Assembly: GCA_964461045.1 (NCBI GenBank)
Contig: CAYWSJ010000001.1
Span: forward strand, 1,114 to 65,113
Reading direction: 5' to 3'
From: an uncultured Bacteroidales bacterium
Lineage (GTDB): Bacteria > Bacteroidota > Bacteroidia > Bacteroidales > UBA12077
Length of the DNA: 64,000 bases
Positions within the stretch are counted from its first letter, which is position 1; every line of letters starts with the position of its first letter. Under the pieces are notes generated by a model. That model worked only from the letters and a program-made list of their open reading frames with translations, did no database searches and was not told the DNA's origin. This document shows, in pieces, positions 5,100-64,000 of this stretch. The position numbers and the translations under genes are program-made.

Positions 5100-5125
5100 G
5101 AATTAACACATAATTCATTACAAAG

Positions 5126-5152
5126 AGCTGGCTCTGTGAGTCGGCTTTTTTG
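5126..5152 (+). terminator. candidate rho-independent terminator
   Basis: Stem agctggctc (5126-5134) / gagtcggct (5138-5146): 9 bp including 2 G-U pairs, 3-nt loop, followed by tttttgttt. Confidence 0.4.
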
Positions 5153-6234: not shown

Positions 6235-6245
6235 AAAAAAACAAA

Positions 6246-40816: not shown

Positions 40817-40817
40817 A

Positions 40818-41714
40818 ATGAAATACGCCGTTATCATACCTGCAAAGAATGAAGAGAACGATCTTCCCGTTGCTCTTAATTCTATTATCAGTCAAACACT
40901 GTCACCTGTTTGCATTTTGGTGGTTGATGACCATTCAACGGACGGCACGGCAAAGGTTGTTCGTTCTTTTATGGATAAATATCCTTTTGTAGAATATTTG
41001 TTTCATGACGAAAATCACCAATATAATCTTGGTTCACCGGTTGTAAAGGCTTTTCATAAGGGAGAAGAGTTTTTGTTGCGTAAAAAATATTCATTTGATT
41101 ACCTGGTTAAAATTGATGCCGACGTAAGCTTTTCGCCAGAAATATTTGAAGAAACATGGAAGTTTATTAAAAAACAGGATACCTCATGTGGAATTGTTTC
41201 AAATGTCCCTTATTTTAACGTAAACGGTAAGAAAAAATACAGAAACAGCCCTGAATGGCATACCAATGGCTCTTTTAAAGTTTATAGTCTCCGTTGCCTG
41301 AATGAAATTGGAGGACTGAAAAAAGAATTGGGATGGGATTGTGCAGACAACATAATGGCCATGGAAAAAAACTGGCAAACGTTTGTTATACCCTATTTAA
41401 ATCACGAATTAATAAGACCGATAGGCAGATTCTCCCGGAAAAGGGGAGCTAAAAGACAGGGAATTGGTGCATATAAGCTTAGATATAGCATTTTGTATGT
41501 TTTTTTTAAAGCATTTCATGATATGCTGAACCCGCCCTATGGGATTCTTGGTTTTTGTTATCTCTATGGATACTTCATGGCTTTATTGAAAAGAGAAAAA
41601 AAAACATTGACAAAGAACCAGGGTAGTCTTCTGCGCAGATTATTATGGAAAAGTTTTTTTAACAGGTTGCAGAAAAGAGAGTTTTTGCTTTTGCAAAAAG
41701 AAAATGAAAAATAA
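40818..41714 (+). CDS. glycosyltransferase family 2
   Basis: YAVIIPAKNEENDL..LVVDDHSTDGT..KIDADV motifs. Starts 1 bp after the upstream stop. Confidence 0.8.
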   Translation: MKYAVIIPAKNEENDLPVALNSIISQTLSPVCILVVDDHSTDGTAKVVRSFMDKYPFVEYLFHDENHQYNLGSPVVKAFHKGEEFLLRKKYSFDYLVKIDADVSFSPEIFEETWKFIKKQDTSCGIVSNVPYFNVNGKKKYRNSPEWHTNGSFKVYSLRCLNEIGGLKKELGWDCADNIMAMEKNWQTFVIPYLNHELIRPIGRFSRKRGAKRQGIGAYKLRYSILYVFFKAFHDMLNPPYGILGFCYLYGYFMALLKREKKTLTKNQGSLLRRLLWKSFFNRLQKREFLLLQKENEK

Positions 41715-41782
41715 TGGCGGTTGGAATAAAAAGGAAATCAAAACATGCACAAACCCTAATTTAAACTTGAAAATACAATTCC

Positions 41783-42517
41783 ATGGAGTTGATGGGTATT
41801 AAATACGATAATTTGACAACCAGTGAGGCTCTTAAAAAACTGGAAGAATTCCTGGATAATGAGAAAAAAACCAATGTGTTTTTCTTAAATATCGACTGTC
41901 TCTACCATGCCAGGAAAGACAAGGAATATTCAGAAATACTCAGAAAAAAAACTGGTCTTGTTCTTGGTGATGGACTAGGTCTGAAAATATTATCCTTTTT
42001 TTACGGAGAAAAGATGAAGGAAAATCTTAATGGTACGGATTTTTCCCCTAAACTCATGTGTACGGCTGCCCAAAAAGGTAAATCCGTTTTCCTCCTGGGT
42101 GGACAAGACGGTGTTGCTGAAAACGCAGCAAAAAAATTTGCATCAACAACCAAAGTGCAAATTGCAGGCACAAATAATGGATATTTTGGCAATGTTAACC
42201 AGGTAATAGACAGAATAAATCGTTCTGAGGCCGATATACTTTTTGTGGGTTTTGGTGTGCCAAAGCAGGAAAAATGGATTGTTGAAAACAGGAAAATGTT
42301 AAATCCTACGCTCTGTATTGGAGTAGGAGGGCTTTTTGATTACAACTCCGGGAGAATAAAACGAGCTCCCAAATTTATCAGAACAATGCACATGGAATGG
42401 ATCTGGCGCATACTGATGGAGCCCCGCAGACTTTTTACCCGATATTTTGTCCATGATATTCCATTGTTGTTTTACTTTATTTTGAATAAGCGGGGCTTGA
42501 AAAAAATGAAATCCTGA
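41783..42517 (+). CDS. WecB/TagA/CpsF family glycosyltransferase
   Basis: 244 aa. GDGLGLK, VFLLGGQDGVAE, ILFVGFGVPKQEKWI, GVGGLFDY.SG..KRAP, MEPRRL, the family signature. Confidence 0.8.
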   Translation: MELMGIKYDNLTTSEALKKLEEFLDNEKKTNVFFLNIDCLYHARKDKEYSEILRKKTGLVLGDGLGLKILSFFYGEKMKENLNGTDFSPKLMCTAAQKGKSVFLLGGQDGVAENAAKKFASTTKVQIAGTNNGYFGNVNQVIDRINRSEADILFVGFGVPKQEKWIVENRKMLNPTLCIGVGGLFDYNSGRIKRAPKFIRTMHMEWIWRILMEPRRLFTRYFVHDIPLLFYFILNKRGLKKMKS

Positions 42518-42559
42518 TTAAATAAAACAGAGTCAAAAATATAAATAACAGCAAAATGA

Positions 42560-43264
42560 ATGAATAAAATGGCAAAATTAGCTTATTTCACAATTGATGA
42601 CTCCCCTGGAAAATATACAACAAGAAAAGTTGATCTTTTGAAAAAGAAAAAGATCCCGGCTCTCTTCTTTTGCAGAGGTGACTTTATGGAAAAAAATCCT
42701 GAACCTGTTATCTATGCCTTAAAAAATGGTTTTGTCGCAGGAAATCATGCCTATTCACATACTCCATTCTCAAAATTAACAATTGATGAATGCCTGAATG
42801 AAATTTTAAAAACGGATCAGATTATTGATGATTTATATGAAAAGGCAAAAGTCAGCCGGGGAAAAAAATATTTCAGGTATCCTTTTGGAACTAAGGGAAA
42901 CATAAGGTTTGGAAACCCAATGATATTTCTGAGAGAATTTGATAAAAAGTTTAATGCTGTTGAAAACCATCTGAAACAACTGGGATATGAACCTTTGAAA
43001 ATTGAAAACTTCAGAAAAAGATATCCGGAAGGTTTTATCATGAATGATACGGATACTTTCTGGACGAGGGATATTAAAGAATGGCAGATTCGAAAATATA
43101 ATCTGAAGTTCGATTCCATTGAAAAGCGAATGGATAAATCTTTTTCCTCCCGAAATGGAAATGAAATTATATTGGTTCATGATCATGAAGAAACCCAGGA
43201 TTATTTTGAAAGAATAGTAAATAAGCTTATTCTGAAGGGTTTTGAATTCTTGGAAATTAAATAA
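42560..43264 (+). CDS. polysaccharide deacetylase (CE4-like)
   Basis: YFTIDDSPG (motif 1), GNHAYSHTPF (motif 2), FRYPFG (motif 3). Confidence 0.7.
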   Translation: MNKMAKLAYFTIDDSPGKYTTRKVDLLKKKKIPALFFCRGDFMEKNPEPVIYALKNGFVAGNHAYSHTPFSKLTIDECLNEILKTDQIIDDLYEKAKVSRGKKYFRYPFGTKGNIRFGNPMIFLREFDKKFNAVENHLKQLGYEPLKIENFRKRYPEGFIMNDTDTFWTRDIKEWQIRKYNLKFDSIEKRMDKSFSSRNGNEIILVHDHEETQDYFERIVNKLILKGFEFLEIK

Positions 43265-43793: not shown

Positions 43794-46025
<2,232 letters not shown>

Positions 46026-48931: not shown

Positions 48932-51900
48932 ATGGATAAAATAAAAAATAAGTATAAAATGAAGAAGTCACTTGTATTTAAGGTTTTGCTATTATCAATT
49001 TTTATGTTGATACTAGGCCGGCAAATGTTTGCAACCAATATTCAGGTAAACAATATTGTGATTGTAGAACGTAATGATGCCGAAGAGTACATCATTGTAG
49101 AGTTCGATTTGAGCTGGGACAACAGCTTTAGGGTCGATGACGGTTTAAATACTAACTGGGATGCCGCCTGGGTATTCATGAAGTATAAAAAAACCACTGA
49201 AACGAATGTTCAGTGGGGACACGCTTCACTGCATGGTTCCGGACATACAATACCCGGTAATTTTAGCGGAAATCTTGGTTCTACAGGTGGGGTAAATAAA
49301 GGAATATTTATTTATCCGAGTGTAATTTTTAATGGGACAGCCTCAATTGAAAATGTAAGGTTAAGATGGGATTATGGTGATGATGGCTTGCTCCCTGAGG
49401 ACGAGGTAGATATTCGTGTGTTTGGCATAGAAATGGTATACGTCCCACAGGGTGACTTCTATGCAGGTAGTGGTGGCGATGAAGCAGCCAGATTTCATGC
49501 AGGTGGCGAAGCTGCAGATGTGCCTTTCCAGGTATCGGACGGTGCTTTTCAAATTGAAAATAGTTCTGGCCATCTATATGCCGCTGGAGAGATTCAAACG
49601 CCTGGGCCTTTGGATACTGACTACCCAACCGGATATAACGACTATTATGTAATGAAACATAGTGTCACTCAACAGGCTTATGTTGATTTTCTGAATACAC
49701 TTGATTATGCAAAGCAGAATGCCCGAACAGAAACAGAAGCAAATACAACAGGCTATATTTATGATACATACCGCCATAAGATCCAGGTACAAACAGCAGG
49801 TACTGCTGGTAGCTCTCCGGCAGTTTACTCCACTGATAATCCCTGGGTTGCTTGTGGTTATTTAAGTAAAGAAGATATTTTATCCTATTTAGATTGGGCT
49901 GCTTTACGTCCGATGACGGAGCTTGAATATGAAAAAGCTGCCAGAGGTCCTTCAAACCCGGTACCTAACGAATATGCCTGGGGAAACACAAGAATAGGGA
50001 AAGTAAACGATATATCCGATCCGGGTCTTGCTACAGAAGCTCCGGTTCCTTCGGGTTATCAAAGAGATATTACAATAGACCACAACAAGATAGATGAGGA
50101 TTTAACCGATTTCCCAGTATTGGTTAAACTTGACAGCAATAATTTTGATTTTACTAAATGCCGACCGGATGGTTTTGATATCAGATTTTATGATGCATCC
50201 GGTTCACCCCTGAAATATCAAAGGGAAAGACATGATGAACCCAACGAAAAAGCAGAATATTGGGTGAAAGTTCCTGAAATATCCAGCAGTGAGAATACTG
50301 TGATAACAATGGAGTATGGAAATAGTTCGGCAGCGGACGGTGAGGATGCTGCTAATGTCTGGAACGGCGGAAGTTTTGCATCAATCTGGCACTTAAATGA
50401 AGAAAGTGATGGAACCGCCGGTGAATACAATGACATTGTCGGTAACAATGATGGTCAGGGAATGGGTTCTTTTGCTGTTAGAGTTGACGAACAACTTGGT
50501 TTTGCCCAGGAATTTGAGGGCGATGATTCAATCTCTGTGCCATACGATGTATCACTGGATATCGAAAATAAAATAACAATAAGTGCCTGGGTTAATCCGC
50601 AGGATATTACAGGTGCTTCATTATCAGAATCTACTGCTGCAGACTGGAACGATAATCAGAGTATGACAAACCTTACTGTTGATGGAGATAGTCTGTTAGT
50701 TACGGATCATACATCAGTGGGAGAAAGAATATCTAAGCCTATTTCGCTTGATAGCATTAAGAAAGTGGGTACCAGTACAATAAACTGGGAAGACAATTAT
50801 GGTTACAAGGTGAAAGCTTTCACAAGTGATGGAAAATTTACTGTTCCGGAAGGTGTTACTGAAGTTGATGTTCTTGTCGTCGCTGGTGGCGGCGGAGGCG
50901 GAGGTAACTCCGGAGGCGGCACCGGTGGCGGCGGCGGCGGCGCCGGAGGCCTGGTATGGCAGGAAGGACATAGCGTAACGCCAGGATCTATAATTGATGT
51001 ACAAGTTGGCGCCGGTGGCGCCGGTGGCCCTGCTGATACCAGGGGCGAACCCGGCGAAAATAGTCAATTCGGAAGTATAGAAGCCATCGGTGGTGGCGCT
51101 GGTGATACCAGGGGCAGTTCATCTACCGATTGGGTTTCAGGAAATTACGGTGACGGTGGCTCCGGTGGCGGTTCCAACTATGCCAATATTGATCCGGGTG
51201 TTTATGGTGCTGGAACTGCCGGACAAGGTAATGATGGCGGTACCGGTGAACAGAATAACTCCGGACAGGGCGGAGGCGGCGGTGGCGCCGGCGCTCCAGG
51301 GGAAAATGGAGTAGCTGATCAGAGTACAACCCGCCCACATGGAGGTGATGGATTATACTACGGAGATGTATTTGGTGATAGTTATGGTGCAAGCGGCTGG
51401 TTCGCCGGCGGTGGTGGCGGCGGAAGTGCTGATGATGCTAACGTGGCAGGACCCGGTGACGGAGGCCAGGGTGGCGGCGGAAACGGTGGTGGAGACCCAG
51501 ATGGTCCGACTGTCGGCCAAACTAACACCGGCGGAGGCGGCGGTGGCGCCGGCGGAGCCGGAGGTGCCGGAGCTGATGGTGGTTCAGGTATTGTGCTTGT
51601 CAGATACAAAAGCCCGGAATCAGTAAATGTATATACTGTAGTAAACAGCGATAATACAACTCCTCCAACTTTTAAAGGACAACAGGTTTTTAATTCTGAT
51701 GGTACTTTTACTGTTCCTGAAGGTATTACAAAAGTAGATGTGCTTGTAGTAGCAGGAGGTGGTGCTGGCAGCGCCGGAACATCAGGCGGAGGAGGAGCAG
51801 GTGGCCTGGTATGGGAAACAGGCTATAGTGTCACTCCGGGAGAGAATATTAATGTAGTAGTCGGTGCTGGCGGTACAGGTGGTCCTAATCCGGGCAATGA

Positions 51901-53365
51901 TCCTCAAGCCGGCACAAATGGAGAAAATAGTTCCTTCGGATCCATAGTAGCTACAGGAGGAGGATATGGCTCATGTGGTCATCCTACCCCTGCAAATGCA
52001 GTTGCCGCAGCAAATGGTGGATCCGGTGGTGGAGCGATGGAATATAACGGAACTTATAGAGGTTTCGGAACAGGAATTTCAGGCCAGGGTAATAATGGTG
52101 GAGATGTTGCCGGAGGTTCTAATGCTACTGCCGGTGGTGCCGGTGCTGGTAGCGTTGGAAGTTCTGTAATAAACACTGCAGGTGATGGTGGCATTGGCCG
52201 GGATTTTAGCCATATTTTTGGAGCAGGCGTTGGAGACAATGGTTGGTTCGCCGGCGGTGGCGGCGGCGGATTTCCTTCATCACCCGGCCAGGGAGGCCTT
52301 GGTGGAGGTGGAAATGGTATTGCCGGAGGCAATGCACCAGCAGCTTCCAATGAAGGAATGCCCAACACCGGTGGCGGTGGTGGCGGCGGCTGGAATTACA
52401 ATGCCGGTACCGGCGCTGATGGAGGATCTGGTGTTGTTATTGTCCGATGGGGAAACTATGCTTCCAAAGGTGATGAAATACCTGGAATTGAACATGGCGA
52501 CGATCTGTCAGGAAAGTATTTATGGGTTATGCAGGAATTGAAAACAAACAATCCTGATTATTCCCCCTCTCTGAATAGTCTGGATATAGAAATAAAAGGT
52601 GAAGCCGTTGTTACAGGCAAAGGAGAAGATACATACCAAATGAGCGTTTACGATGGTAATCTGAAAGGTTATATCAACAGCCAGGAAGTATCCTCTTCCA
52701 GTTTAACCAATGATGTATACCAACACGTAGCCATTACATACGATGGGTCTTTCCAGCGTATTTATATTAATGGTCTGCTAACAGGAACCAGTTCTTTAAC
52801 CGGAAATATAAATACCAATGCAAATAACCTGCTAATGGGAACAAACCTTGAAGGGATTCTTGACGAAGTGCGGTTATCTGATACTTCAAGATCACAAGCA
52901 TGGCTGAAAGCAGAATTTCATTCCGGAAATCTTGATTTATTAACTATTGGCGGAGAAGGTGCCCTGAGTAATGCTGCTGTTGAAAATGTTGAGTACGACG
53001 CTGTAGGTTCTGCCGGACCTCTTCGGGTTGGTTTTGGAGCAACAGCAAGTAGTTCGAGAACTGCTGCCGGGTCTTCTTATTGGGGTATTCCCGGCTTGAG
53101 TGGAAATGTTTGGGAACGTACGGTTACTGTCGGAAATGCTACAGGTCGTTCATTTAACGGCTTACACGGCAATGGCTTACTTAATGCAAGTGGTCTGTTT
53201 GATGTTACCAATTGGGATATTAACGGTCTTGGTTTTCGGGGAGGTGCTTTTCACCATCAGATTAGTGATGGTTATTTCAGAATCTCTGACAGAACAGCTG
53301 CTGAACACACAAGTGATGCCCGTGGTTTTTCATGGGGTGGAAGAGGAGTACGTACAGCACCATAA
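48932..53365 (+). CDS. 1,477-aa secreted multidomain protein: split FGE/SUMF1-like domain enclosing DUF2341-like and LamG-like domains, with the LamG itself split by two glycine-rich domains
   Basis: Likely start ATG 48959 (MKKSLVFKVLLLSIFMLILG). FGE N-part 49424-49988 (MVYVPQGDFYAG..YVMKHSVTQQAYVDFL..LRPMTELEYEKAARG..YAWGN). DUF2341-like 50068-50325 (ITIDHNKIDEDLTDFPVLVKL..). LamG N-part to ~50600 (..ITISAWVNPQD). Glycine-rich domains 50815-52452. LamG C-part 52618-52920 (..YQHVAITYDG..IYINGL..LDEVRLSD). FGE C-part 53093-53362 (SGNVWERT..FRGGAF..). Confidence 0.85.
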   Translation: MDKIKNKYKMKKSLVFKVLLLSIFMLILGRQMFATNIQVNNIVIVERNDAEEYIIVEFDLSWDNSFRVDDGLNTNWDAAWVFMKYKKTTETNVQWGHASLHGSGHTIPGNFSGNLGSTGGVNKGIFIYPSVIFNGTASIENVRLRWDYGDDGLLPEDEVDIRVFGIEMVYVPQGDFYAGSGGDEAARFHAGGEAADVPFQVSDGAFQIENSSGHLYAAGEIQTPGPLDTDYPTGYNDYYVMKHSVTQQAYVDFLNTLDYAKQNARTETEANTTGYIYDTYRHKIQVQTAGTAGSSPAVYSTDNPWVACGYLSKEDILSYLDWAALRPMTELEYEKAARGPSNPVPNEYAWGNTRIGKVNDISDPGLATEAPVPSGYQRDITIDHNKIDEDLTDFPVLVKLDSNNFDFTKCRPDGFDIRFYDASGSPLKYQRERHDEPNEKAEYWVKVPEISSSENTVITMEYGNSSAADGEDAANVWNGGSFASIWHLNEESDGTAGEYNDIVGNNDGQGMGSFAVRVDEQLGFAQEFEGDDSISVPYDVSLDIENKITISAWVNPQDITGASLSESTAADWNDNQSMTNLTVDGDSLLVTDHTSVGERISKPISLDSIKKVGTSTINWEDNYGYKVKAFTSDGKFTVPEGVTEVDVLVVAGGGGGGGNSGGGTGGGGGGAGGLVWQEGHSVTPGSIIDVQVGAGGAGGPADTRGEPGENSQFGSIEAIGGGAGDTRGSSSTDWVSGNYGDGGSGGGSNYANIDPGVYGAGTAGQGNDGGTGEQNNSGQGGGGGGAGAPGENGVADQSTTRPHGGDGLYYGDVFGDSYGASGWFAGGGGGGSADDANVAGPGDGGQGGGGNGGGDPDGPTVGQTNTGGGGGGAGGAGGAGADGGSGIVLVRYKSPESVNVYTVVNSDNTTPPTFKGQQVFNSDGTFTVPEGITKVDVLVVAGGGAGSAGTSGGGGAGGLVWETGYSVTPGENINVVVGAGGTGGPNPGNDPQAGTNGENSSFGSIVATGGGYGSCGHPTPANAVAAANGGSGGGAMEYNGTYRGFGTGISGQGNNGGDVAGGSNATAGGAGAGSVGSSVINTAGDGGIGRDFSHIFGAGVGDNGWFAGGGGGGFPSSPGQGGLGGGGNGIAGGNAPAASNEGMPNTGGGGGGGWNYNAGTGADGGSGVVIVRWGNYASKGDEIPGIEHGDDLSGKYLWVMQELKTNNPDYSPSLNSLDIEIKGEAVVTGKGEDTYQMSVYDGNLKGYINSQEVSSSSLTNDVYQHVAITYDGSFQRIYINGLLTGTSSLTGNINTNANNLLMGTNLEGILDEVRLSDTSRSQAWLKAEFHSGNLDLLTIGGEGALSNAAVENVEYDAVGSAGPLRVGFGATASSSRTAAGSSYWGIPGLSGNVWERTVTVGNATGRSFNGLHGNGLLNASGLFDVTNWDINGLGFRGGAFHHQISDGYFRISDRTAAEHTSDARGFSWGGRGVRTAP
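50815..52452 (+). repeat. two tandem glycine-rich domains (~265 and ~255 aa)
   Basis: Each starts F(T/N)SDG(K/T)FTVPEG(V/I)T(E/K)VDVLVVAGGG and ends ADGGSG(I/V)V(L/I)VR(Y/W), at 50815-51612 and 51685-52452. The GGN-codon-rich sequence spawns off-frame and antisense ORFs. Confidence 0.75.
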
Positions 53366-53431: not shown

Positions 53432-56400
53432 ATGCAACGACTGATATTATATTTTCTTTTAATATTCTTCCAGGCAGGCACTCTTTTTGCCCAACCTGAT
53501 TATATGCAAGTTACCACCCAGCCTCAAAATACCGAGGCTGGCCAGGTCGTTGCGGGAAATCCGGTTGTAACAGTTTATGATTCAGATGATAATCCTGTAG
53601 GGGCAGGAACAAATGTTAATGTTACCCTGAATAAGCATAGTTTTGCAGGATCAAGCACACTTACAGTTGCAACAGATGATAACGGAAGAGCCGTTTTTTC
53701 AAACCTGGTTATTGATACTGCTGCAAACAATTATCAACTAACTTTTAGCTCCGGCTCTCTTTCTGATGTTGCTTCAAATAATTTTAATGTTACTTCTGCT
53801 GCTCCTGACTATATGTCTATAACAACACAACCCGGAGATACTATCCAGGGTTATCCTGTTGCCGGTTTCCCAACTGTAACAGTTTATGACACTTATGGTA
53901 ATCCGGTGCAGAACATCGAAATCACAGTTACTGTCAATAAAAATTCATTAAACGGTACTTTAACTGAAACAACAAATTCAAATGGTACAGCCTTATTTAA
54001 CAATCTTATTATAGATGTTTTTGACACTGGTTATGAGTTAACTTTTGATGCTGATGATACGGATGCTCCGGGTGTTGCAAATGTAACTTCAACAACTTTT
54101 GAAATATTCGAAGAACAAGCCACCATTACAACAATCAACCAACCTGTGAATAGTGTTGTTTCATATCCCCTGGAAGGAGATAATGTTATTCAGGGACCAG
54201 CCGTTCTGGTAAAGAATATGTCCGGGGATTCACTTCAGGGTATTAATATCATTGCTGAATTATCGGGAGGGTCATTTGGCAGTTCCAGTATAGATACAAT
54301 AACAACAGATTCCGATGGTATTGCTGTATTTGACAGTTTATTAATTAATAACCCGGGAACTGGATACCAGATCATATTCAGTACAGGAACCAATGCCGTG
54401 GCTGATGAAATTTCAACTACTTTTGATGTTCTTTCGGAAAGTGGTGTTTTAATTCTGAATCAGCAACCTGAGGAGAGCATAGAAGCCTACCCGGTCGAGG
54501 GGCCTCCGACAATATACCTGGAAGATGGAGGTTCTCCAATAATTGGGACTGATGTAACTGCATATTTGAGTAAGAATAGTTTTTCCGCGGAAAGCAAACT
54601 TACTGTAACCACAGATAATTCCGGTATTGCTGTGTTTGATAGTTTATTTATTGATTCAGTAGACACGGACTATCAGATTTATTTTAAAGCCTCACAAGCG
54701 GGTGTTTCAACTATTATTTCCGATTCTTTTGATGTGGTTGAGGAACTTGCTACCTTATCTGTAAATCAACAACCGGAGTTAACCATATCCGGAGAATTAA
54801 TTAATGGTCCTCCATCAGTGGAATTAATTGATAAAAGTACAGGAAATCCACCTTCTTCTCCTGTAAATATTTATGCATACATTAATAAAAACGACTTTGC
54901 CGGAGAAAGTGATACTATAGCTACTGCTAAACCGGCCAATAACGGAATTGCTACTTTTGACAGTTTGATTGTTAATCATTCTGAAAATGATTATGAAATT
55001 AGATTCTCCACAAATTCATCAGGTATTGCGGATATTACTACTGATTCATTCGATATAATACCTGTAGCGGGCACTATGACAATTGATCCTCAGCCTGTAG
55101 AAACTATAGAAGGTTACCCGGTAGCCGGACCCCCAAAAATTACAATTCTTGATCCTGGTGATAATCCTCTACAGGGAATTTCTGTCGAAGCCATACTGAA
55201 TAAAAACGGTTTTGCTTCAGGCACAACAACCCTATCAACAAATGCTGATGGAGAAGCGATTTTTGATGACTTGATTATTAACGATGTAGCTGCAAATTAC
55301 AACATTCAGTTTAATGTTGATGTAAGTACAGGTGTTGTAAGTCAAACTTCAAATAATTTTGATGTTGTTGAGGAAACTGCTTTTCTTACTGTTCAGAATC
55401 AGCCTTCTTTAACAGTTGCAGGAGAGGTGGTGAATGGCACGCCATCGGTCTTGCTTGAAGACGCTGTTACAGGTGACCCGATTGCAAATGCTACAATTAA
55501 TGTGTCACTGAATAAAGGAAATATTTCCGGAGGAACGACATCTGTATTAACAAATTCAAGCGGTATAGCTGTTTTTGATGATTTATTTATAGACAATGAC
55601 GATCAGGATTATGAATTAATATTTTCCACAGGTACTTCCGGAATTGCTGATATTCATTCTGGACAATTTGATGTGGTACCTGTTGCAGGAGAAATTTCCA
55701 TAATTCAGCAACCACAGGAAACTGTCGATGGATACACTGTTGCAGCCCCCCCAGCAATAGAAATATTGCGGACAGATGGTATTACGCCTATGCCAGGGTT
55801 AGATGTAACAGCCACTATAAACAAAAATAATTTTACAGGCCCCAGCACAACAACGCTAACTACAGATGTAAACGGAGAAGCTTTTTTTGATAACCTCACA
55901 CTTAACCAGGCTGCTGATGATTATGAAATTACTTTTACGCTTGATCCTTCTGACAGTATACCCGATACAACTACAACAAAATTCAATGTAGTCAACGAAG
56001 TCGCTGTTATTACAATTCAAAATCAGCCTCAACTTACCATTGCTGGTGAATACATAAATGGCCCTCCTTCTGTAATACTTGAAACACCAAGTGGAACACC
56101 AATTAGCGGAGGAACAATTTATGTAAGCCTGAATCAGTCGGATTTTGCCACAGAAAGTGTTGTTTCCGCTACTTCAAATTCAAGCGGGATTGCAACCTTT
56201 GATAGCCTGATTATCGATGATGCAAACACGGGCTATGAAATAACATTTTCTTCAAATTCTTCCGGTATAGCGCCCAAAACATCTTCCTCCTTTGAAATTG
56301 TTGATCCTGAAGGTCTCATAGAAATAACTCAGCAACCTCTTGAAACTGTTAATGGCCAACCTGTCGCAGGTCCACCTTCTGTGTCAATCACAGAAACTAA

Positions 56401-59400
56401 TGGTGATCCATGGGGTGGCAATGAAGTTGATATTACAGTATCTATTAATAAAAACGGATTTAGCAGTGGAACATTAACAAAAACAACAACCGGAGGTAGC
56501 GCTGCCTTTGATAATCTAATTCTAAATAGCATTGATACGGATTATCAATTAACTTTTTCTACTGACATTTCTGAACGAATACCATCTGAAAAAACTGATA
56601 GTTTTGATGTGGTAGCTGTAACAGGTAATATGAATATTACTCTTCAGCCTTCAGAAACCGTTGCGGGTGATCCCATTAACGGCCCCCCAACAGTGATACT
56701 GACAAATTTATCAGGCAATCCGGTTCAGGGAGTTGATATCACTGCCTCTCTTAATAAAAATTCATTTAATGGAAGCAGTACTACAACGGTTACTACTAAC
56801 TCCAGTGGAGAGGCGGTTTTTGATAACCTCATGATTGATGTTTTTGATACCGGTTACGAAATCACTTTTTCGTCGGAGGCCTCGGGAGTAGCAGATATTA
56901 CATCCAATCCTTTTGAAGTAACAGATGCTACTCTGTCAATGAGCGTGACAACGCAACCACAACAATCTGTTGCAGGAGACACTGTTGAAGGTTATCCTGC
57001 TGTAACAGTAACCAATGGTGGTGGCGGAATTTCCGGAGTAGTTGTTACAGCTTCTATAAACAAAAACAATTTTGACGGTGCAAGCACACTAACTGCTACT
57101 ACAGATGGAGGAGGAGTCGCTACATTTGATAATCTTATTTTGAATACTGCCGACACAGATTATAAGATAACTTTTAATGCTGATTATTCAGGAGTTCCAA
57201 ATGCATTATCAAGCCCTTTTGAAATAATTGCTGCTTCACCTGATGATATAATTGTTACTACTGAACCTTCTCAAACTGAAGCAGGATCAGTTATTCAAGG
57301 ACCTCCAACTGCCTTGTTGCTTGATGAATTCGGAAATCCGGTTAGCGGAGTAAATATTGATGTTGTTCCTAACCAGCATAACTTTGCATCAGGAACAACC
57401 TCTAAAACCACCAGCAACAATGGTAAAGCTATTTTTGATGACCTGGTTTTAAATATAGCTGAAGATAATTACCAGTTATTGTTTACCGAGTCGGGCGGAG
57501 CTGACGCTAATTCTGATTATTTTGAAGTCACCAGCGCTCAGGAAGATACACTTAAGATTCTTAACCACCCATTTGAAACAGTAGCCGGTGCAGCAATTAA
57601 TGGTCCCCCTACAGTCCTTGTTGAAGATGAATATGGAAATCCTGTTACAGGTATTACGGTTTCTCTGAATGAAGAGGGTGGCTATCCTATTGATGCAGGA
57701 ACACTTAACCTGGAGACCCAGGATAACGGACAGGTCTCTTTTACTGACCTTGTAATTAATACAGAAAATATTGGCTATCAATTGCGTTTTAGCACCGGAG
57801 GAATTCAAAATCTTTCAAATAAATTTAATGTCGTTCCCGGTACCATCTTTCCAAGGTTTCATGGAAGCACACACAGCGGTTATGTAACTCACCTAAATAA
57901 CAATAATTCACTAGGACAAACTCCTACCCGTATTGAAATTGACATGCAGCCACAGGAAAGTGTAGTCGGATCTAATATTGAAGGACCTCCTGAAATTGTG
58001 GTTTATGATGCAACTGATCAACCGGTGTCAAATGTTTCAGTAACAGTTAGCGGTGCTGTATTCAGCAGCGGAACAGTAACCCGCACAACTGATGAAAATG
58101 GTCATATTCCCTTTAATGACCTTGTAATTGATACTAAAGGGACATATAATTTAACTTTTACTGCTGATGACTATCCTTCAGTAACCGCTCAGTCTAATGA
58201 TTTTGAAGTCATTGATGCAATAGCTACAATGACTATGGACATACAACCCCAGGAGACAGTAGCCGGACAACCCGTGGCAGGTCATCCAGCAGTTCTGCTT
58301 GAAAATTCTATAGGAATGCCTATGGAGGGAGTTGATATTAGAGTTTATATCAACCAGCATTCGTTCGTGTCGGGAAATACTACTGTTCAAACCGATGCAA
58401 ATGGGTTGGCTGTTTTTGATGATTTGGTTATTAATAAGGCTGCTGAAAATTATCAGTTGATTTTTGATGCAGATTATTCCGGAGTACAGAATCTAACTTC
58501 AGGCAGTTTTAAAGTGATTAATGCCAATGCCCATAACCTGCAAGTTACAACGCAACCCATGGAAACTTATCAGGGAGCAACAATTGAAGGTCCACCTGTT
58601 GCTCGTGTTACAGATGAATACGGCAATCCAGTGCCTGGTGCTGAAATCTCTGTATCAGAAGTTTCAGGGGCTATTGATGCTGGTATTACCAATATTACTT
58701 CAGATATTAATGGTTATGCTACTTTTTCTACATTGGTTATAAACGACAATGGTACTTATCAACTAAACTTTTCATCTTCGGGTCTAACGGACGCTTTATC
58801 CAATAATTTTCAGGTGGTTCCCGGTACCGTTGCTAATCGTTTTAAAGGAAGCAGCCATAGTGGATTTGGAAATAAATCAATTCAAAATAAACTCCTGGGT
58901 CAAAAACCTGTTCGAATGGAGATGGTGACACAGCCGCTGGAAACTGTAGCCGGATTTGCTATTGAAGGTCCACCGGTTATTGGTGTTTATGATGCACTTG
59001 ACAACCCCGTTCCGAACGTACAAGTTACTGTAACTGCTATTGGCGGTTCTCTTGACAACGGAACATACACAAAAACAACAAACGAACAGGGAGAAATTAC
59101 CTTTAATGACCTGATTATAAACACTTCAGGTACATATCAGCTATCCTTTACTGCTGATAATTATTCCGGTACAGTGTCTGATTTACAGTCTTCTAACTTT
59201 GATATAGTTGACCAGGTTTATAACATGCAAATAGAAACCCAACCTGGAAATACTACTGCTGGTCAAACTGTTAATGGAGTTCCTAAAGTTTCAATTACAA
59301 ATTTTATTAACCAGCCATTATCAGGAGTGGAGGTTACTGTGTATATCAATCAGTTTAGCTTTGCTTCCGGAACAATGACAGTCCAAACAGATGAGAATGG

Positions 59401-62400
59401 TGAAGCAATTTTTAATGATCTTGTAATTAATAATGCCTCTGCAGATTACCAATTAATCTTTGATGCAGATTATTCAGGTGTGAGTAATGTTGCTTCGGAT
59501 AATTTTGACATTACACCCGCTGCGCCTTCGTCTATGACCATAAATACACAACCTTTTGAAACTACCGAAGGAGCTGCAATAGAAGGACCACCATCAGTTG
59601 CTTTAACAGATGATTTCAATAACCCGGTAACAGGTGAAAATATATCTGTATCCGAAAGTGGTGGTTATATCTTTGACGGTGGAACCACAACTCTCAGTAC
59701 CAATGAAAATGGATTGGTAACTTTTTCAGATTTGGTTATCAATGCAATTGGAACTTATAGTCTTACATTTAGTCATTCTTCTGTAAGTGACTTGAATTCT
59801 GACATTTTTAATGTAATATCAGGAACTGTTTCAAACAGGTTTAAAGGGAGCTCACATAGCGGTTTTGGAAAACAGGAAACAAACAACAAATTATTAGGTC
59901 AAATACCCTCAAGAATAGAAATTATTGGTCAGCCGCAAGAGACCGTAGTTGGAGAAGTAATAGAAGGCCCTCCACAAATTGTTGTTTATGATGCCCTGGA
60001 TAATACTGTAGCTAATGTAGACATTTCTGTTACAGTTCCCGGTGGTTTTAAGCCTGGCTCAACCACGACCATATCAACAGATGAAAATGGCGAAATCACA
60101 TTTAACAATCTGATAATTGAATCTGTGGGTAGTTATCAATTAAGTTTTTCAGCTGATAATCATCCCGGAGTTACCGCTCAGTCTGAAACTTTCGAAGTAA
60201 TTGATCAGCAACTATTTCTTTCTGTTACCACACAGCCTGGAGAATCAACAGCTGGGCAACCAGTAGCGGGCCATCCAACTGTGCAACTGGCCAATTCAAT
60301 CGGTCAGGGCTACCAGGGAGTAGACATTACGGTTTATTTGAATCAATTCGGGTTTTCTTCTGCTCCTTCTACCCAGACTGTAACTACAAATTCATCTGGC
60401 TACGCTGAGTTTGACCAAATTGTGATCAACCAGGCAGCGGAAAATTACCAGTTACTCTTTGATGCCAATTATGGCGGGGTTTTAAATGTCTCCTCTGATA
60501 CTTTTAATGTGATCCATGCCGCAGCCGATCATCTTACTACAGTTACCGAACCAGAAGAAACAGTCTCGGGAGCTACGATAAGCGGACCACCTTCAGTAAG
60601 AGCTGTTGATGCATTCAATAATCCCGTTGATGGTGTAAATATTAGTGTATCGGAAACTGGTGGATATACTTTTGATGCTGGAACATTGTCAGCCAACTCC
60701 AATGAAAATGGGATATCTGCCTTTAATGATTTAATTATTAACGACATAGGTCAATATAGCTTGACATACAGTGCTTCGGGGCTTCCCGATCTTGTCTCTA
60801 ATAACTTCAATGTAATTTCAGGAACTATATCTTACCGATACAAAGGTAGTACTCATAGTGGTTTTTCCCAGGTAGCAGCCAATGATAAATATTTAGGCCA
60901 AACACCTGCCAGAATAGAAATTCAGGCACAGCCAATGGAAACAATTGTTTCATCATCCATTGAGGGGCCTCCTTCGATAATTGTTTATGATAATGTTGAT
61001 AACCCTGTCTCTGGTATCACAATTAGAGTTAGTGTGGATGGATTCTTTACTCCGGCAAGTACAACAGAAATACAAACAAATGCCAGTGGAGAAGTTGTTT
61101 TTGATAACTTGGTTATAGACCAGACAGGATTCTATACATTAACTTTTGAGGCTATTGGATATGGAAATGTAGATCCTGTAAATTCACAGGAATTCGAGGT
61201 GGTTAATCAAATGTTAAATGCCAGTATTGTTACTCAGCCATCTGAAACAGTTGCAGGTGATCCACTTGCCGGACCTCCTGAAGTTAAACTTGAAAATGAT
61301 TTCGGTCAGGGCTTCCAGGGTGTTGATGTAATAGCTCATATCAATCAGTCAAATTACACTCCCTCATCAACAGATACAGTAACAACAGATGCGAACGGCC
61401 TGGCAACCTTCAGTAACCTGGTACTTGAGAATGCAGAAGAAAACTACCAGGTTATATTTGAAATTGATTATACCGGAGTGAACAATCTTTCATCTGACTT
61501 TTTTGATGTTGTACCTGCACCTGCCAGTCAGTTTGTGATGATTACCCAGCCTGAAGACGGACTTGCTGGAGCTCCTGTTGGTGGTCCACCGGCTGTAGGC
61601 CTTCAGGATGCTTACAATAATGCAATAGCTGGTGAGACAGTAACAGTTTCCGAAGTAGGAGGTTATAGTTTTGATGCTGGTACAGTAAATATAACAACCA
61701 ATGAGAACGGAACAGCAGTATTCAATGATCTTTTAATTAATACAGACGGAACATATAATTTGAATTTCAGTACTTCTCTGGCAGGAGTAAGCGACCTACA
61801 GAGCAATTCATTTACCTTGCAGCCAGGTAATATTGCCAATAGATTTAAAGGAAATACTCATAGCGGATTCTATACGCAAAATAGAGAAAATGTATTGTTA
61901 CAACAAGTTCCTGAAAGAATAGTGATTTTGACACAACCTATGCAATCAGTAGTAAGTGTACCTATTCAGGGACCACCTTCGCTTAGAGTCTACGACCAGA
62001 CTGATATTTCTGTTTCAGGTGTGGCGGTTACCGCCTCAGTTGTTGGTGGTTCTACATCTCTTTCCGGTACACAAACACTTACAACCGATGTAAATGGAGA
62101 GGTCCTTTTTGATGACATCAGTATTAATCAAACAGGCACTTACCAATTACATTTCGAGGTTGCAGGGTATCCTGATGTAGAAGTAAATTCACAAAACTTC
62201 GAAGTCATTAATCAAACATTATCAATGGAAGTGAACGAACAACCACAAAATACAGAAGCCGGACAAATCATAGGAGGACATCCTGCTGTATCCATTACAA
62301 ATGAAGTTGGTCAGCCCGCACCAGCAGGCATCGATGTGGTTGCTTATACAAATCAGAATAGCTTTTCTTCTGATCCTTCTTATGATACTGTTCAAACAAA

Positions 62401-64000
62401 CTCTTCAGGTATTGCAATTTTTGAAAACCTTGTAATAAATGAAGCTTCAGATGATTATCAGATTGTTTTTGATGCAGTTTATTCTGGAGTATCCAATGTT
62501 AGTTCAAACGTATTTACAATTTTTCCCGCACCGGCTGATAATATGCAAATAATTACACAACCTCTTGACGGAGAGGCAGGTTCTGTAATCTCAGGACCAC
62601 CCACAATAGGTGTATACGATGTTTATGGAAACAGTATTCAGGGAATTGATGTAGGAGTATCAGAAATAGGTGGTGAACCTCTAAATGGCACAACAACAAT
62701 TGCTACAGATGATAATGGAATTTCTGTATTTACCGATCTTATAATAGACAATCCTGGAACATATCAGCTATTGTTCAATGCCAATGCAGCAGGAGTAAGC
62801 AATATTCAATCTGAAAGCTTTAATGTTATCTCCACAGGAACAATTCACCGGTTCAAAGGTGGCTCCCACAGTGGATTTATTTCATCTGAAATTGATAATC
62901 AGTTGCTTTCAGAACCTCCTGAAGTCGAATTACCGGTATTTACAATCTTTGAGGATACCTTATGCCAGGGTACATTAAATACTCAATATACAGCAGAAGC
63001 AGCAAATAATGATTCAATAAGATATGAAATTACTGTTCCTTCTGCAGGAAGCATTGATAACATCACAGGGGTGCTTGATTTACAAACAAACTTTTATGGT
63101 GAGTTTTATGTAAAAGCAACTTCATATGGATATAACGGACCCAAATCTGATTCTATGAGAGTAATAGTAGAACCAGAAATTGATGCTCCAGTGTTTACAG
63201 ATCCTGTATTGGATGTCTGCCAGGGAGATAATACCACTTATACTGCCACTTCGGTACATACTGATTCCATTTCTTATTCAGTATCTCCTTCATTTGCAGG
63301 AGCTATGGATGCTGGTAGCGGAGAAATAAACTGGGATTCAGGGTTTTCCGGCTCAGCTCAAATTACTGCAACTGCAGGTGAAGTTGATGATTGTGGAGGA
63401 CAGAAACAAACAAGTGTTGAAGTAACTGTAAATCCAGAAGTTGAAACACCTGTGTTTACAGAAGGAGCAACCTCACTCTGTCAGGATTCTCCAAATGAAA
63501 CTTATACCGCTACCGCAGCTCATGCTACAGATATAACTTATTCGCGTGCACCTGCTGAGGCTGGTACTATTGATCCGAATACAGGCGAAATGAACTGGGC
63601 ATCTGATTTTTCAGGTACTGTTACTATTACAGCCAGGGCAGAAGGACAATGCAATGGACCAAAAGACAAAGATCTTACTGTTACAATACATCCTAAACCT
63701 GCTACTTCTGTTATTTCGGGAGAGGCGGATATTGCCTGTAACGCCACTGGAGAGGTTTACAGTGTCGATTTACATACAGATGCAAATTATAACTGGTCAG
63801 TCCCAACTGGCGCATCTATTACAAACGGTGCAACAGGCCCGGAAAATAACAGCATTACAGTTGACTTCTCCGACAATAATGGATATATCCGTGTAACAGA
63901 GACCAGTCAATTTGGATGTGTTGGTGATGAACAAGAATTACAGGTAACATTGTATGGATGTAACCTTTCTTCAGACTTTGAAGCTTCTGAAACCGAAACA
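53432..64000 (+). CDS. giant repetitive surface protein / adhesin, 5' part (at least 3,523 codons; 3' end outside the window)
   Basis: ATG 53432 is preceded by an in-frame TAA (53429-53431). By manual translation no stop appears in this frame through 64000 (10,569 nt), so it is missing from the ATG..stop track. Signal peptide MQRLILYFLLIFFQAGTLFAQ. Roughly thirty ~100-aa Ig-like modules follow, then Cys-containing PKD-like units. Confidence 0.85.
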   Translation, partial: MQRLILYFLLIFFQAGTLFAQPDYMQVTTQPQNTEAGQVVAGNPVVTVYDSDDNPVGAGTNVNVTLNKHSFAGSSTLTVATDDNGRAVFSNLVIDTAANNYQLTFSSGSLSDVASNNFNVTSAAPDYMSITTQPGDTIQGYPVAGFPTVTVYDTYGNPVQNIEITVTVNKNSLNGTLTETTNSNGTALFNNLIIDVFDTGYELTFDADDTDAPGVANVTSTTFEIFEEQATITTINQPVNSVVSYPLEGDNVIQGPAVLVKNMSGDSLQGINIIAELSGGSFGSSSIDTITTDSDGIAVFDSLLINNPGTGYQIIFSTGTNAVADEISTTFDVLSESGVLILNQQPEESIEAYPVEGPPTIYLEDGGSPIIGTDVTAYLSKNSFSAESKLTVTTDNSGIAVFDSLFIDSVDTDYQIYFKASQAGVSTIISDSFDVVEELATLSVNQQPELTISGELINGPPSVELIDKSTGNPPSSPVNIYAYINKNDFAGESDTIATAKPANNGIATFDSLIVNHSENDYEIRFSTNSSGIADITTDSFDIIPVAGTMTIDPQPVETIEGYPVAGPPKITILDPGDNPLQGISVEAILNKNGFASGTTTLSTNADGEAIFDDLIINDVAANYNIQFNVDVSTGVVSQTSNNFDVVEETAFLTVQNQPSLTVAGEVVNGTPSVLLEDAVTGDPIANATINVSLNKGNISGGTTSVLTNSSGIAVFDDLFIDNDDQDYELIFSTGTSGIADIHSGQFDVVPVAGEISIIQQPQETVDGYTVAAPPAIEILRTDGITPMPGLDVTATINKNNFTGPSTTTLTTDVNGEAFFDNLTLNQAADDYEITFTLDPSDSIPDTTTTKFNVVNEVAVITIQNQPQLTIAGEYINGPPSVILETPSGTPISGGTIYVSLNQSDFATESVVSATSNSSGIATFDSLIIDDANTGYEITFSSNSSGIAPKTSSSFEIVDPEGLIEITQQPLETVNGQPVAGPPSVSITETNGDPWGGNEVDITVSINKNGFSSGTLTKTTTGGSAAFDNLILNSIDTDYQLTFSTDISERIPSEKTDSFDVVAVTGNMNITLQPSETVAGDPINGPPTVILTNLSGNPVQGVDITASLNKNSFNGSSTTTVTTNSSGEAVFDNLMIDVFDTGYEITFSSEASGVADITSNPFEVTDATLSMSVTTQPQQSVAGDTVEGYPAVTVTNGGGGISGVVVTASINKNNFDGASTLTATTDGGGVATFDNLILNTADTDYKITFNADYSGVPNALSSPFEIIAASPDDIIVTTEPSQTEAGSVIQGPPTALLLDEFGNPVSGVNIDVVPNQHNFASGTTSKTTSNNGKAIFDDLVLNIAEDNYQLLFTESGGADANSDYFEVTSAQEDTLKILNHPFETVAGAAINGPPTVLVEDEYGNPVTGITVSLNEEGGYPIDAGTLNLETQDNGQVSFTDLVINTENIGYQLRFSTGGIQNLSNKFNVVPGTIFPRFHGSTHSGYVTHLNNNNSLGQTPTRIEIDMQPQESVVGSNIEGPPEIVVYDATDQPVSNVSVTVSGAVFSSGTVTRTTDENGHIPFNDLVIDTKGTYNLTFTADDYPSVTAQSNDFEVIDAIATMTMDIQPQETVAGQPVAGHPAVLLENSIGMPMEGVDIRVYINQHSFVSGNTTVQTDANGLAVFDDLVINKAAENYQLIFDADYSGVQNLTSGSFKVINANAHNLQVTTQPMETYQGATIEGPPVARVTDEYGNPVPGAEISVSEVSGAIDAGITNITSDINGYATFSTLVINDNGTYQLNFSSSGLTDALSNNFQVVPGTVANRFKGSSHSGFGNKSIQNKLLGQKPVRMEMVTQPLETVAGFAIEGPPVIGVYDALDNPVPNVQVTVTAIGGSLDNGTYTKTTNEQGEITFNDLIINTSGTYQLSFTADNYSGTVSDLQSSNFDIVDQVYNMQIETQPGNTTAGQTVNGVPKVSITNFINQPLSGVEVTVYINQFSFASGTMTVQTDENGEAIFNDLVINNASADYQLIFDADYSGVSNVASDNFDITPAAPSSMTINTQPFETTEGAAIEGPPSVALTDDFNNPVTGENISVSESGGYIFDGGTTTLSTNENGLVTFSDLVINAIGTYSLTFSHSSVSDLNSDIFNVISGTVSNRFKGSSHSGFGKQETNNKLLGQIPSRIEIIGQPQETVVGEVIEGPPQIVVYDALDNTVANVDISVTVPGGFKPGSTTTISTDENGEITFNNLIIESVGSYQLSFSADNHPGVTAQSETFEVIDQQLFLSVTTQPGESTAGQPVAGHPTVQLANSIGQGYQGVDITVYLNQFGFSSAPSTQTVTTNSSGYAEFDQIVINQAAENYQLLFDANYGGVLNVSSDTFNVIHAAADHLTTVTEPEETVSGATISGPPSVRAVDAFNNPVDGVNISVSETGGYTFDAGTLSANSNENGISAFNDLIINDIGQYSLTYSASGLPDLVSNNFNVISGTISYRYKGSTHSGFSQVAANDKYLGQTPARIEIQAQPMETIVSSSIEGPPSIIVYDNVDNPVSGITIRVSVDGFFTPASTTEIQTNASGEVVFDNLVIDQTGFYTLTFEAIGYGNVDPVNSQEFEVVNQMLNASIVTQPSETVAGDPLAGPPEVKLENDFGQGFQGVDVIAHINQSNYTPSSTDTVTTDANGLATFSNLVLENAEENYQVIFEIDYTGVNNLSSDFFDVVPAPASQFVMITQPEDGLAGAPVGGPPAVGLQDAYNNAIAGETVTVSEVGGYSFDAGTVNITTNENGTAVFNDLLINTDGTYNLNFSTSLAGVSDLQSNSFTLQPGNIANRFKGNTHSGFYTQNRENVLLQQVPERIVILTQPMQSVVSVPIQGPPSLRVYDQTDISVSGVAVTASVVGGSTSLSGTQTLTTDVNGEVLFDDISINQTGTYQLHFEVAGYPDVEVNSQNFEVINQTLSMEVNEQPQNTEAGQIIGGHPAVSITNEVGQPAPAGIDVVAYTNQNSFSSDPSYDTVQTNSSGIAIFENLVINEASDDYQIVFDAVYSGVSNVSSNVFTIFPAPADNMQIITQPLDGEAGSVISGPPTIGVYDVYGNSIQGIDVGVSEIGGEPLNGTTTIATDDNGISVFTDLIIDNPGTYQLLFNANAAGVSNIQSESFNVISTGTIHRFKGGSHSGFISSEIDNQLLSEPPEVELPVFTIFEDTLCQGTLNTQYTAEAANNDSIRYEITVPSAGSIDNITGVLDLQTNFYGEFYVKATSYGYNGPKSDSMRVIVEPEIDAPVFTDPVLDVCQGDNTTYTATSVHTDSISYSVSPSFAGAMDAGSGEINWDSGFSGSAQITATAGEVDDCGGQKQTSVEVTVNPEVETPVFTEGATSLCQDSPNETYTATAAHATDITYSRAPAEAGTIDPNTGEMNWASDFSGTVTITARAEGQCNGPKDKDLTVTIHPKPATSVISGEADIACNATGEVYSVDLHTDANYNWSVPTGASITNGATGPENNSITVDFSDNNGYIRVTETSQFGCVGDEQELQVTLYGCNLSSDFEASETET
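54731..56610 (+). repeat. three ~625-bp di-module super-repeats inside the giant ORF
   Basis: E-type modules (FDVVEE..NQP.LT.(S/A)GE..NG.PSV.L.D) start at 54731, 55361 and 55985. They alternate with V-type modules (F(D/E)(I/V)(I/V)..(A/E)G....(I/T)..QP.ET..G..VA.PP). Confidence 0.7.
57836..62834 (+). repeat. five ~1.0-kb tri-module super-repeats inside the giant ORF, delimited by a conserved linker motif
   Basis: The linker (P/S/T)G(T/N)....R(F/Y)(K/H)G(S/N/G)(S/T)HSG(F/Y) starts at 57836, 58820, 59819, 60818, 61823 and 62834, giving spacings of 984, 999, 999, 1005 and 1011 bp. Confidence 0.85.
62930..64000 (+). repeat. ~250-bp Cys-containing PKD-like units at the distal end of the visible giant ORF
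   Basis: Units begin ..PVFT..LCQG.., ..APVFTDPVLDVCQGDN.., ..TPVFTEGATSLCQDSPN.., ..PKPATSVISGEADIACNATGEVYSV..NYNWSVP..GCVGDEQELQVTL. Each has a Cys pair ~60-70 aa apart. Confidence 0.55.

Follow-up and report, generated by a model that had tools for sequence, protein, structure and literature searches.

Tandem beta-sandwich domains joined by connectors of 1–3 residues build surface rods in invasin, intimin and FdeC, whose domains belong to the Big_1 family (PF02369), and in arrays of CarboxypepD_reg/macroglobulin-like domains. Here we describe a giant gene that shares this architecture in a 64,000-nucleotide (nt) stretch of DNA from an uncultured Bacteroidales bacterium (GTDB lineage UBA12077; contig CAYWSJ010000001.1, positions 1,114–65,113), called the window below, with all coordinates counted from its first letter. 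Compared with the Big_1 rods, its product adds a super-repeat of three classes of immunoglobulin (Ig)-like modules (A-B-C) and a PKD_6-like C-terminal region, and its super-repeats are separated by a 28-residue linker that carries a conserved RFxGxxHSGF motif. A model that saw only the letters of the window and its open reading frames (ORFs) had drawn attention to this linker; we followed up this sequence-only reading by computational analysis.

Short interruptions of an Ig rod are known from filamin, in which flexible hinges of ~30 amino acids (aa), unrelated in sequence, lie between Ig repeats 15/16 and 23/24 and are targets of calpain. The parallel would be one of working rather than of ancestry: a short non-Ig insert, here predicted to be flexible, interrupts a long rod of Ig repeats. 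Filamin has two hinges, whereas here an extracellular protein of a bacterium repeats one conserved motif six times, strictly once every three domains, and the two share no sequence relationship. The B-repeats of the staphylococcal proteins SasG and Aap consist of a G5 domain and an E spacer and form a Zn-dependent zipper, in which His-containing repeats take part in metal-dependent association. They resemble our array as fibrillar surface proteins built of folded domains with short conserved spacers in between, but G5 is absent from the Pfam matches of the giant protein (E <= 1), its spacer follows every third module, and each spacer has a single, substitutable His. Among Bacteroidota, the mobile T9SS adhesins SprB and RemA are likewise very large, repetitive surface proteins, and GldJ and GldK are machinery proteins of the type IX secretion system (T9SS) and of gliding that have the fold of the formylglycine-generating enzyme (FGE). 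Two orthologs of the giant protein carry a T9SS type A sorting domain, and the protein encoded next to it appears to share an FGE-like fold with GldJ, GldK and PorK. Unlike SprB, however, the giant protein matches no SprB-repeat family (Pfam, E <= 1), and its neighbour matches neither GldJ nor GldK.

Results

A 28-residue linker recurs at a strict period in a giant Ig-repeat protein

The giant ORF encodes at least 3,522 aa from its ATG to the edge of the window, where the frame is still open; a 90%-identical ortholog (P0004) continues for 457 aa beyond this point. Its product matches the Pfam families CarboxypepD_reg (204.2 bits, cut-off 32.3, 18 matched stretches) and Big_1 (152.7 bits, cut-off 34.9, 15 matched stretches) and is a member of the Big_1/CarboxypepD_reg class of Ig-like repeat adhesins. 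The same search gave a PKD_6 match at aa 3424–3504, in a PKD_6-like region that begins after aa ~3180. A hidden Markov model (HMM) built from the modules themselves segments the ORF into 29 modules of ~100 aa. Connectors between modules are 1–2 aa throughout, except for five that are exactly 28 aa, and a sixth linker copy follows the last module, ahead of the PKD-like region. Three module classes, A, B and C, are told apart by identity (47–50% within a class versus 31–38% between classes). They form five A-B-C super-repeats of 328–337 aa, and every linker copy (6/6) is preceded by a C-type module, in the C-terminal half of the protein.

The linker has the consensus T(V/I)xNRFxGx(S/T)HSGF, then nine variable residues, then LGQxP (Table 1). 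Six copies of the motif lie in a single reading frame, with their first residue (P, S or T) at 57836, 58820, 59819, 60818, 61823 and 62834, and hence at spacings of 984, 999, 999, 1005 and 1011 nt. At linker 1 the motif start given by the sequence-only reading lies 6 nt before the linker itself, on the PG that closes the C module. A six-frame scan of the 64-kb window for the pattern [RK][FY][KHR]G..HSG[FY] gave no match beyond these six copies. When this part of the protein is compared with itself, identity is highest at a shift of 333 aa (27% versus 7% background), and Tandem Repeats Finder detected no repeat in the DNA; the ~1-kb periodicity is present at the protein level only. A chance origin of the periodic motif is excluded, because the pattern is absent elsewhere in the window and occurs in only 11 of the best 150 protein matches of the database scan described below, at a spacing of 328–341 aa. 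The six motifs lie where the sequence-only reading had placed them, with its quoted peptides and codons exact. The pattern spacings, the self-identity peak and the module-HMM gaps bear out its strictly periodic linker, and the class identities its A-B-C triplets.

The linker lies outside the Ig fold

The linker is an element separate from the Ig fold, because the module HMM stops short of it, its profile has no similarity to that of the modules, and the domains modelled by AlphaFold2 are complete without it. First, the module HMM ends 28 aa short at exactly the linker junctions. Second, a profile of 30 linkers showed no similarity to a profile of 29 modules (hhalign probability 0.1%). The same comparison thus gave no support to an origin of the linker by duplication of the last strand, a candidate raised by the pair S-N-x-F-x-V and S-N-R-F-K-G. 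Third, we modelled the C-linker-A junction at linker 3 twice with AlphaFold2, using a 6-sequence and then a 25-sequence alignment. In the models, two complete beta-sandwiches with their own first and last strands flank the linker, with a predicted local distance difference test score (pLDDT) of 84–96 for the domains over both runs. The pLDDT of the linker is below 50 at residues 108–129 or 114–128; in the 25-sequence run the domains reach up to 90–96, and residues 114–128 remain below 50. The predicted template modelling score (pTM) is 0.44–0.45, and a pTM of 0.45 means that the C-linker-A model has no defined inter-domain geometry. Secondary structure in this region differs between the two models: one has none over the core motif and only a short helix at residues 126–129, in the variable spacer, and the other has a short helix at residues 106–112.

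The modelled domains are all-beta (pLDDT >90), and by Foldseek their fold resembles solved members of the Big_1 family, the best matches being Yersinia InvE (5n40), intimin D00-D0 (6tqd), FdeC (4e9l) and the MG domains of complement C3 (E ~1e-7). Isolated linkers had no match in Pfam, and the linker profile gave only chance-level matches among PDB sequences (ribosomal protein S4, E = 0.64; an antibody light chain, E = 5.5). These results agree with the non-Ig nature that had been claimed for the linker. Neither Pfam, NCBIfam and PDB sequences nor the literature that could be searched, including a search for HSGF in Bacteroidetes, gave a described counterpart of a periodic linker of this kind.

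The core decamer is under purifying selection in an ancient array

The five paralogous super-repeats share 49% aa identity and 56% nt identity, with a proportion of synonymous differences (pS) of 0.70; between linker copies pS is 0.77–0.87. Synonymous sites between paralogous copies are saturated. In the 16-aa motif core, identity is 67% and pS 0.87, with a nonsynonymous divergence (dN) of 0.18 versus 0.5 elsewhere. The linker had been described as conserved in protein but not in DNA. This holds for the linker but is not specific to it: the whole super-repeat is equally old and diverged, the same description applies to the entire array, and only the decamer stands out. RFxGxxHSGF is the most conserved 10-aa segment in the five copies of the window (78% versus a mean of 48%, z = 2.9). 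Over 25 aligned junctions, information content is 3.71 bits per position in the decamer, 2.67 in the domains and 1.39, the lowest value, in the 9-aa spacer. The Arg, Gly, His, Ser and Gly of the core are invariant at these junctions, as are the Gln and Pro of LGQxP. A positional search of the wider family that made no use of a regular expression found the His replaced in ~4 of ~60 copies (by Glu, by Tyr twice, and by Ala) and the Ser replaced by His once. With one His per copy, itself replaceable, "His/Ser-rich" overstates the composition of the linker.

We then compared the window with a 90%-identical ortholog (L008, from JGI sample 3300038954), for which the synonymous divergence (dS) is unsaturated. 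Modules and whole linkers have the same dN/dS ratio, 0.10; it falls to 0.04 in the core decamer and rises to 0.15 in the 9-aa spacer. Between the window and another ortholog (P0005), super-repeats are positionally orthologous (64–68% identity on the diagonal versus 40–55% off it). The array is therefore older than those lineages and was never homogenised. Hence, the core decamer is under purifying selection and the array is ancient. Saturated synonymous sites, positional orthology and the lower dN/dS of the core (0.04 versus 0.10) all uphold the proposal that selection on the protein, and not recent duplication or gene conversion, has kept the motif.

Carriers of the linker are uncultured Bacteroidales and Bacteroidota

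When the pattern was back-translated and run against 185,579 species genomes, six loci emerged, all in metagenome-assembled genomes (MAGs) of uncultured Bacteroidales/Bacteroidota, whose labels include Salinivirgaceae, Rikenellaceae and Bacteroidaceae. We also scanned 1.84 billion representative proteins exhaustively with HMMER. The motif was present in 11 of the best 150 matches, carriers with at least two copies always showed a spacing of 328–341 aa, and those source records that bear a name are again MAGs of uncultured Bacteroidales/Bacteroidota. The motif is thus found beyond the window with the same period, and its distribution is narrow. Every family member has the junction-gap pattern [28,1,2]n. 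Linker length is 28 aa in ~40 of 42 copies (one is 27 and one 29), across more than 10 genomes. Terminal copies across the family always keep RFxGxxHSGF and do not keep LGQxPxR; the terminal copy in the window likewise retains the first half and has lost the second. Meanwhile, ~40 related module arrays outside the family have connectors of 1–5 aa or of whole ~100-aa domains and no ~28-aa insert, so that among the Big_1-type arrays inspected only this family has a periodic, fixed-length, motif-bearing insert.

A word-indexed homolog search with a C-linker-A query gave two matches and one other carrier. At locus L001 (1–13412 of a contig from JGI sample 3300076001, which also holds L011), the homologous giant gene is split into many short called genes in differing frames, which looks like frameshift errors or pseudogenisation; because this gene is broken up, the first protein search returned just a 184-aa fragment. 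One protein with 46 matches to the linker part of the profile, P0030 (2,579 aa, with ~46 near-identical 56-aa repeats ARYGVTPHSGS, ARYGVTPHSGSQ), was taken as a chance match. It looks unrelated, low-complexity and eukaryote-like.

An upstream gene travels with the giant gene

The gene directly upstream of the giant gene (Table 1) precedes it in the window and in loci L002–L006 and is its sole conserved neighbour; the genes downstream are not conserved. A reverse search from the upstream protein gave 17 orthologs with the full architecture, and in each of the three new loci that it yielded (L011–L013) a giant gene with the periodic motif lies directly downstream. The synteny of this cassette holds in 9/9 loci examined, and two linker-less relatives of the giant protein are without the partner gene. 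The upstream protein has an FGE-sulfatase-like domain, DUF2341, Laminin_G_3 and two Gly_rich_2 domains. Its FGE-like fold appears to be split into two halves by the intervening domains, an N-terminal part at ~aa 236–354 and a part with RGG...RISDR...GGRGVRTAP at the extreme C-terminus. The match to PF03781 (FGE-sulfatase) is weak and partial (E = 3e-6). Against the PDB, the fused FGE-like core gave weak matches to FGE and CalU17 (E = 0.019), together with spurious matches to designed "Cake" beta-propellers. Against NCBIfam, the upstream protein matched neither GldJ nor GldK, and a sub-threshold TafC was the only hit. No protease, transglutaminase, sortase or glycosyltransferase domain was recognised in the conserved cassette.

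Locus L011, on a 280-kb JGI contig, has a divergent gene set next to the cassette (1562–7921, - strand) that encodes a 1,442-aa product with no Pfam match, a Laminin_G_3 protein and a DUF2341 fragment. It is possible that this set is a paralog of the upstream partner gene that has decayed or diverged. In the window, a polysaccharide-biosynthesis run (GT1, GT2, a WecG/TagA-type glycosyltransferase and a polysaccharide deacetylase) lies upstream of the cassette at 39791–43264 (+) and is not conserved in related loci. G+C content, ~0.35 elsewhere, peaks at 0.47 (44001–46000) and 0.49 (50001–52000). The first peak coincides with a catalase-peroxidase gene (43818–46025), and the second lies over the glycine-rich domains of the upstream protein and is probably an effect of Gly codons.

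Two orthologs carry a T9SS sorting domain

At the N-terminus of the giant protein, MQRLILYFLLIFFQAGTLFAQ looks, by eye, like a signal peptide. A T9SS type A sorting domain (Por_Secre_tail, TIGR04183) is present in the orthologs P0006 (24.6 bits, cut-off 23) and P0010 (39 bits), which supports a cell-surface location. No such C-terminal domain (CTD) was matched in the 90%-identical ortholog P0004 or in P0003. The C-terminus of the giant protein itself falls beyond the window, and because its nearest ortholog is without the sorting domain, its own export by the T9SS is no more than a possibility. Two kinds of C-terminus are apparent when P0006, P0010 and L003 are compared with P0003, P0004, P0005, P0007, P0009 and P0012. 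One kind is the T9SS type A sorting domain; the other stops after ...(H/Y/S)IP(N/F)(T/D)F.. with no recognisable CTD, and this ending resembles the opening residues of a type B (CHU_C) sorting domain.

The linker-free N-terminal modules (Table 1) show a weak two-module period of their own at 53498–57538. Self-identity peaks at offsets of 103, 207 and 415 aa, and odd/even identities among the 13 modules barely differ (40–42% versus 37.5%).

Table 1. Features of the giant gene and its upstream partner in the window
Feature	Coordinates	Strand	Sequence or description	Basis
Cassette partner	48932..53365	+	1,477-aa secreted protein, 66 nt upstream of giant gene	Domains, synteny
Giant surface-protein ORF	53432..64000	+	ATG start, open at window end	
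N-terminal modules	53498..57538	+	13 B-like Ig modules, 1–2-aa connectors, no linkers	HMM segmentation, class assignment
Module 14	57545..57841	+	First C-type module (signature ..EEGGYPIDAGT..), directly before linker 1	
Linker 1	57842..57925	+	28 aa, TIFPRFHGSTHSGYVTHLNNNNSLGQTP	Regular expression and HMM segmentation
Super-repeat 1	57926..58825	+	Modules A, B, C	
Linker 2	58826..58909	+	28 aa, TVANRFKGSSHSGFGNKSIQNKLLGQKP	Regular expression and HMM segmentation
Super-repeat 2	58910..59824	+	Modules A, B, C	
Linker 3	59825..59908	+	28 aa, TVSNRFKGSSHSGFGKQETNNKLLGQIP	Junction used for AlphaFold2
Super-repeat 3	59909..60823	+	Modules A, B, C	
Linker 4	60824..60907	+	28 aa, TISYRYKGSTHSGFSQVAANDKYLGQTP	Regular expression and HMM segmentation
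Super-repeat 4	60908..61828	+	Modules A, B, C	
Linker 5	61829..61912	+	28 aa, NIANRFKGNTHSGFYTQNRENVLLQQVP	Regular expression and HMM segmentation
Super-repeat 5	61913..62836	+	Modules A, B, C	
Terminal (sixth) linker	62837..62920	+	GTIHRFKGGSHSGFISSEIDNQLLSEPP, between last C module and PKD-like region	
PKD_6-like region, start	62921..64000	+	Cys-containing, continuing past window	Pfam

Discussion

We tentatively propose, with somewhat less than even confidence, that the linker is a fixed-length joint that bears a docking motif. We favor a joint with a docking or latch element because connections elsewhere in the rod are rigid, the linker has no confident fold, its ten-residue motif is conserved and its length is fixed. 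The 28-residue inserts would split an otherwise rigid rod of the Big_1/CarboxypepD_reg type into three-domain segments and would give it defined articulation points. The RFxGxxHSGF element, probably unable to fold alone, would be held either by neighbouring domains, as a latch, or by a partner protein, and LGQxP would lead into the first strand (RIEI) of the next A module. The best candidate for such a partner may be the secreted, split-FGE-like protein encoded directly upstream. Both the docking role and the identity of the partner are what we infer, and the flexibility of the linker is suggested solely by low AlphaFold2 confidence. The sequence-only reading had listed a metal or ligand site, a processing or cross-linking site and a hinge as possible functions. 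A hinge combined with docking fits best, though not decisively, and a His-dependent site is weakened by the Glu, Tyr and Ala substitutions seen in some copies.

Several observations weigh against a flexible joint with a docking motif. Low pLDDT is no proof of disorder, and a strict length of 28 aa despite a free middle argues for a defined geometry, not a floppy tether. A small structured clasp that AlphaFold2 missed, such as a metal- or ligand-dependent one, could equally account for the data. Synteny says only that the giant gene and the upstream gene travel together. The terminal copy holds half the motif, and the two halves may have separate roles. The lead of the core decamer within the window is modest (78% versus 74% for the structural IEGPP..VY motif), and its dN/dS estimate is based on 60 codons. 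Finally, family-wide invariance is partly circular, in that the copies were first gathered by regular expression; a positional analysis of HMM gaps regains the same copies without that expression.

The clasp itself deserves the most weight among the alternatives, and we consider it unlikely. In such a site RFxGxxHSGF would be beta-hairpin-like and would fold only with a bound ion or ligand, held by the His together with Ser/Asn/Gln and aromatic residues; it would set how successive three-domain segments are angled, or would join molecules to one another like a zipper, the role that Zn has in Aap/SasG. The strict 28-aa length and the (nearly) invariant Gly, His, Ser, Gly and aromatic positions would suit a structure of this kind. 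AlphaFold2, moreover, cannot model ligand-dependent folds, which would account for the low pLDDT. There is only a single His per copy, however, which Glu, Tyr (twice) or Ala can replace, and there are no conserved acidic or Cys ligands. The likeness of R-F-x-G-S...S-G-x-x-F to the D-E hairpin found in light chains of antibodies does not exceed chance (E = 5.5); the linker has no PDB or Pfam relative, and the two AlphaFold2 models agree on no secondary structure.

We regard as improbable a site of processing or covalent modification, at which an enzyme would cleave the rod into ~333-aa units, cross-link it, or modify the Ser or His. A conserved linear motif that lacks a confident fold is what enzymes typically recognise, the Gln and Pro of LGQxP are invariant in 25/25 internal copies, and a secreted multidomain protein is always co-encoded, but no protease, transglutaminase, sortase or glycosyltransferase domain was recognised in the cassette. 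The Lys of RFK, moreover, is present in just 12/25 copies. Self-cleavage usually needs an absolutely invariant nucleophile, and the His and the Ser each have exceptions. The Gln of LGQxP may be comparable to the acceptor in transglutaminase-type Q-x-P sites, which are cross-linked to Lys. Autoproteolytic sites of the G/S or HFS type, cross-link domains with ester or isopeptide bonds and transient haem binding are at most conceivable for the linker and were set aside. Two known patterns did not apply: the D(S/T)(A/L/V) O-glycosylation sequon of Bacteroidetes is absent from the linker, and the linker does not fit the GxSxG nucleophile elbow.

A more specific alternative, to which we give very little credence, is that the linkers form a rack of pseudo-substrates. 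LGQ-T-P-x-R would then mimic the FGE-bound (L)C-T-P-S-R with Gln in place of Cys/Ser, and the upstream FGE-like domain, its catalysis presumably lost, would dock every three domains. CxPxR is the sequence that FGE recognises (PMC7756428), and in the T9SS protein PorK the FGE fold is described as repurposed as a structural element (reference 47 of PMC12635249). Within Q-x-P-x-R, Gln is found in 25/25, Pro in 25/25 and Arg in 22/25 internal copies, and the protein matching PF03781 (E = 3e-6) is syntenic in 9/9 loci. The likeness is only five residues long, though, and possibly a coincidence; the Arg-Ile-Glu is probably no more than the strand with which the A module opens; the terminal copy is without LGQxPxR, its Pro and Arg being absent; and the upstream protein resembles FGE only weakly and in part (PDB E = 0.019), with no match to a GldJ/GldK model. 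A true FGE substrate was ruled out, as position 1 of (C/S)-x-P-x-R is Gln in 25/25 internal copies. If such a rack were real, uncultured Bacteroidales would possess a new type of surface assembly with two components, akin in principle to the FGE folds repurposed in PorK, GldK and GldJ of the T9SS and gliding machinery.

Lastly, that the linker is a mere extended terminal strand or loop of a known Ig family, or was left behind neutrally when the unit duplicated, is largely refuted and hardly credible: the entire super-repeat is indeed conserved in protein and saturated in DNA, and dN/dS over all 28 residues equals that of the modules (0.10 for both), but the module HMM and both AlphaFold2 models finish the domains without the linker, the profiles share no similarity, no segment of the unit is more conserved than the core decamer, and ~40 copies in more than 10 genomes keep their length, whereas decay and varying lengths would be expected of a neutral remnant.

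The usual description of giant Ig-repeat adhesins is that of a uniform rod, whereas the array described here has strictly periodic, fixed-length and near-invariant linkers that may serve as its joints. The motif is short and portable, and all its known carriers are uncultured. If the joints are docking or latch sites, they would show, in a simple case from nature, how a bacterial surface fibre can encode mechanical segmentation or the ordered loading of a partner. They would also point to a further non-enzymatic use of the FGE fold in Bacteroidota.

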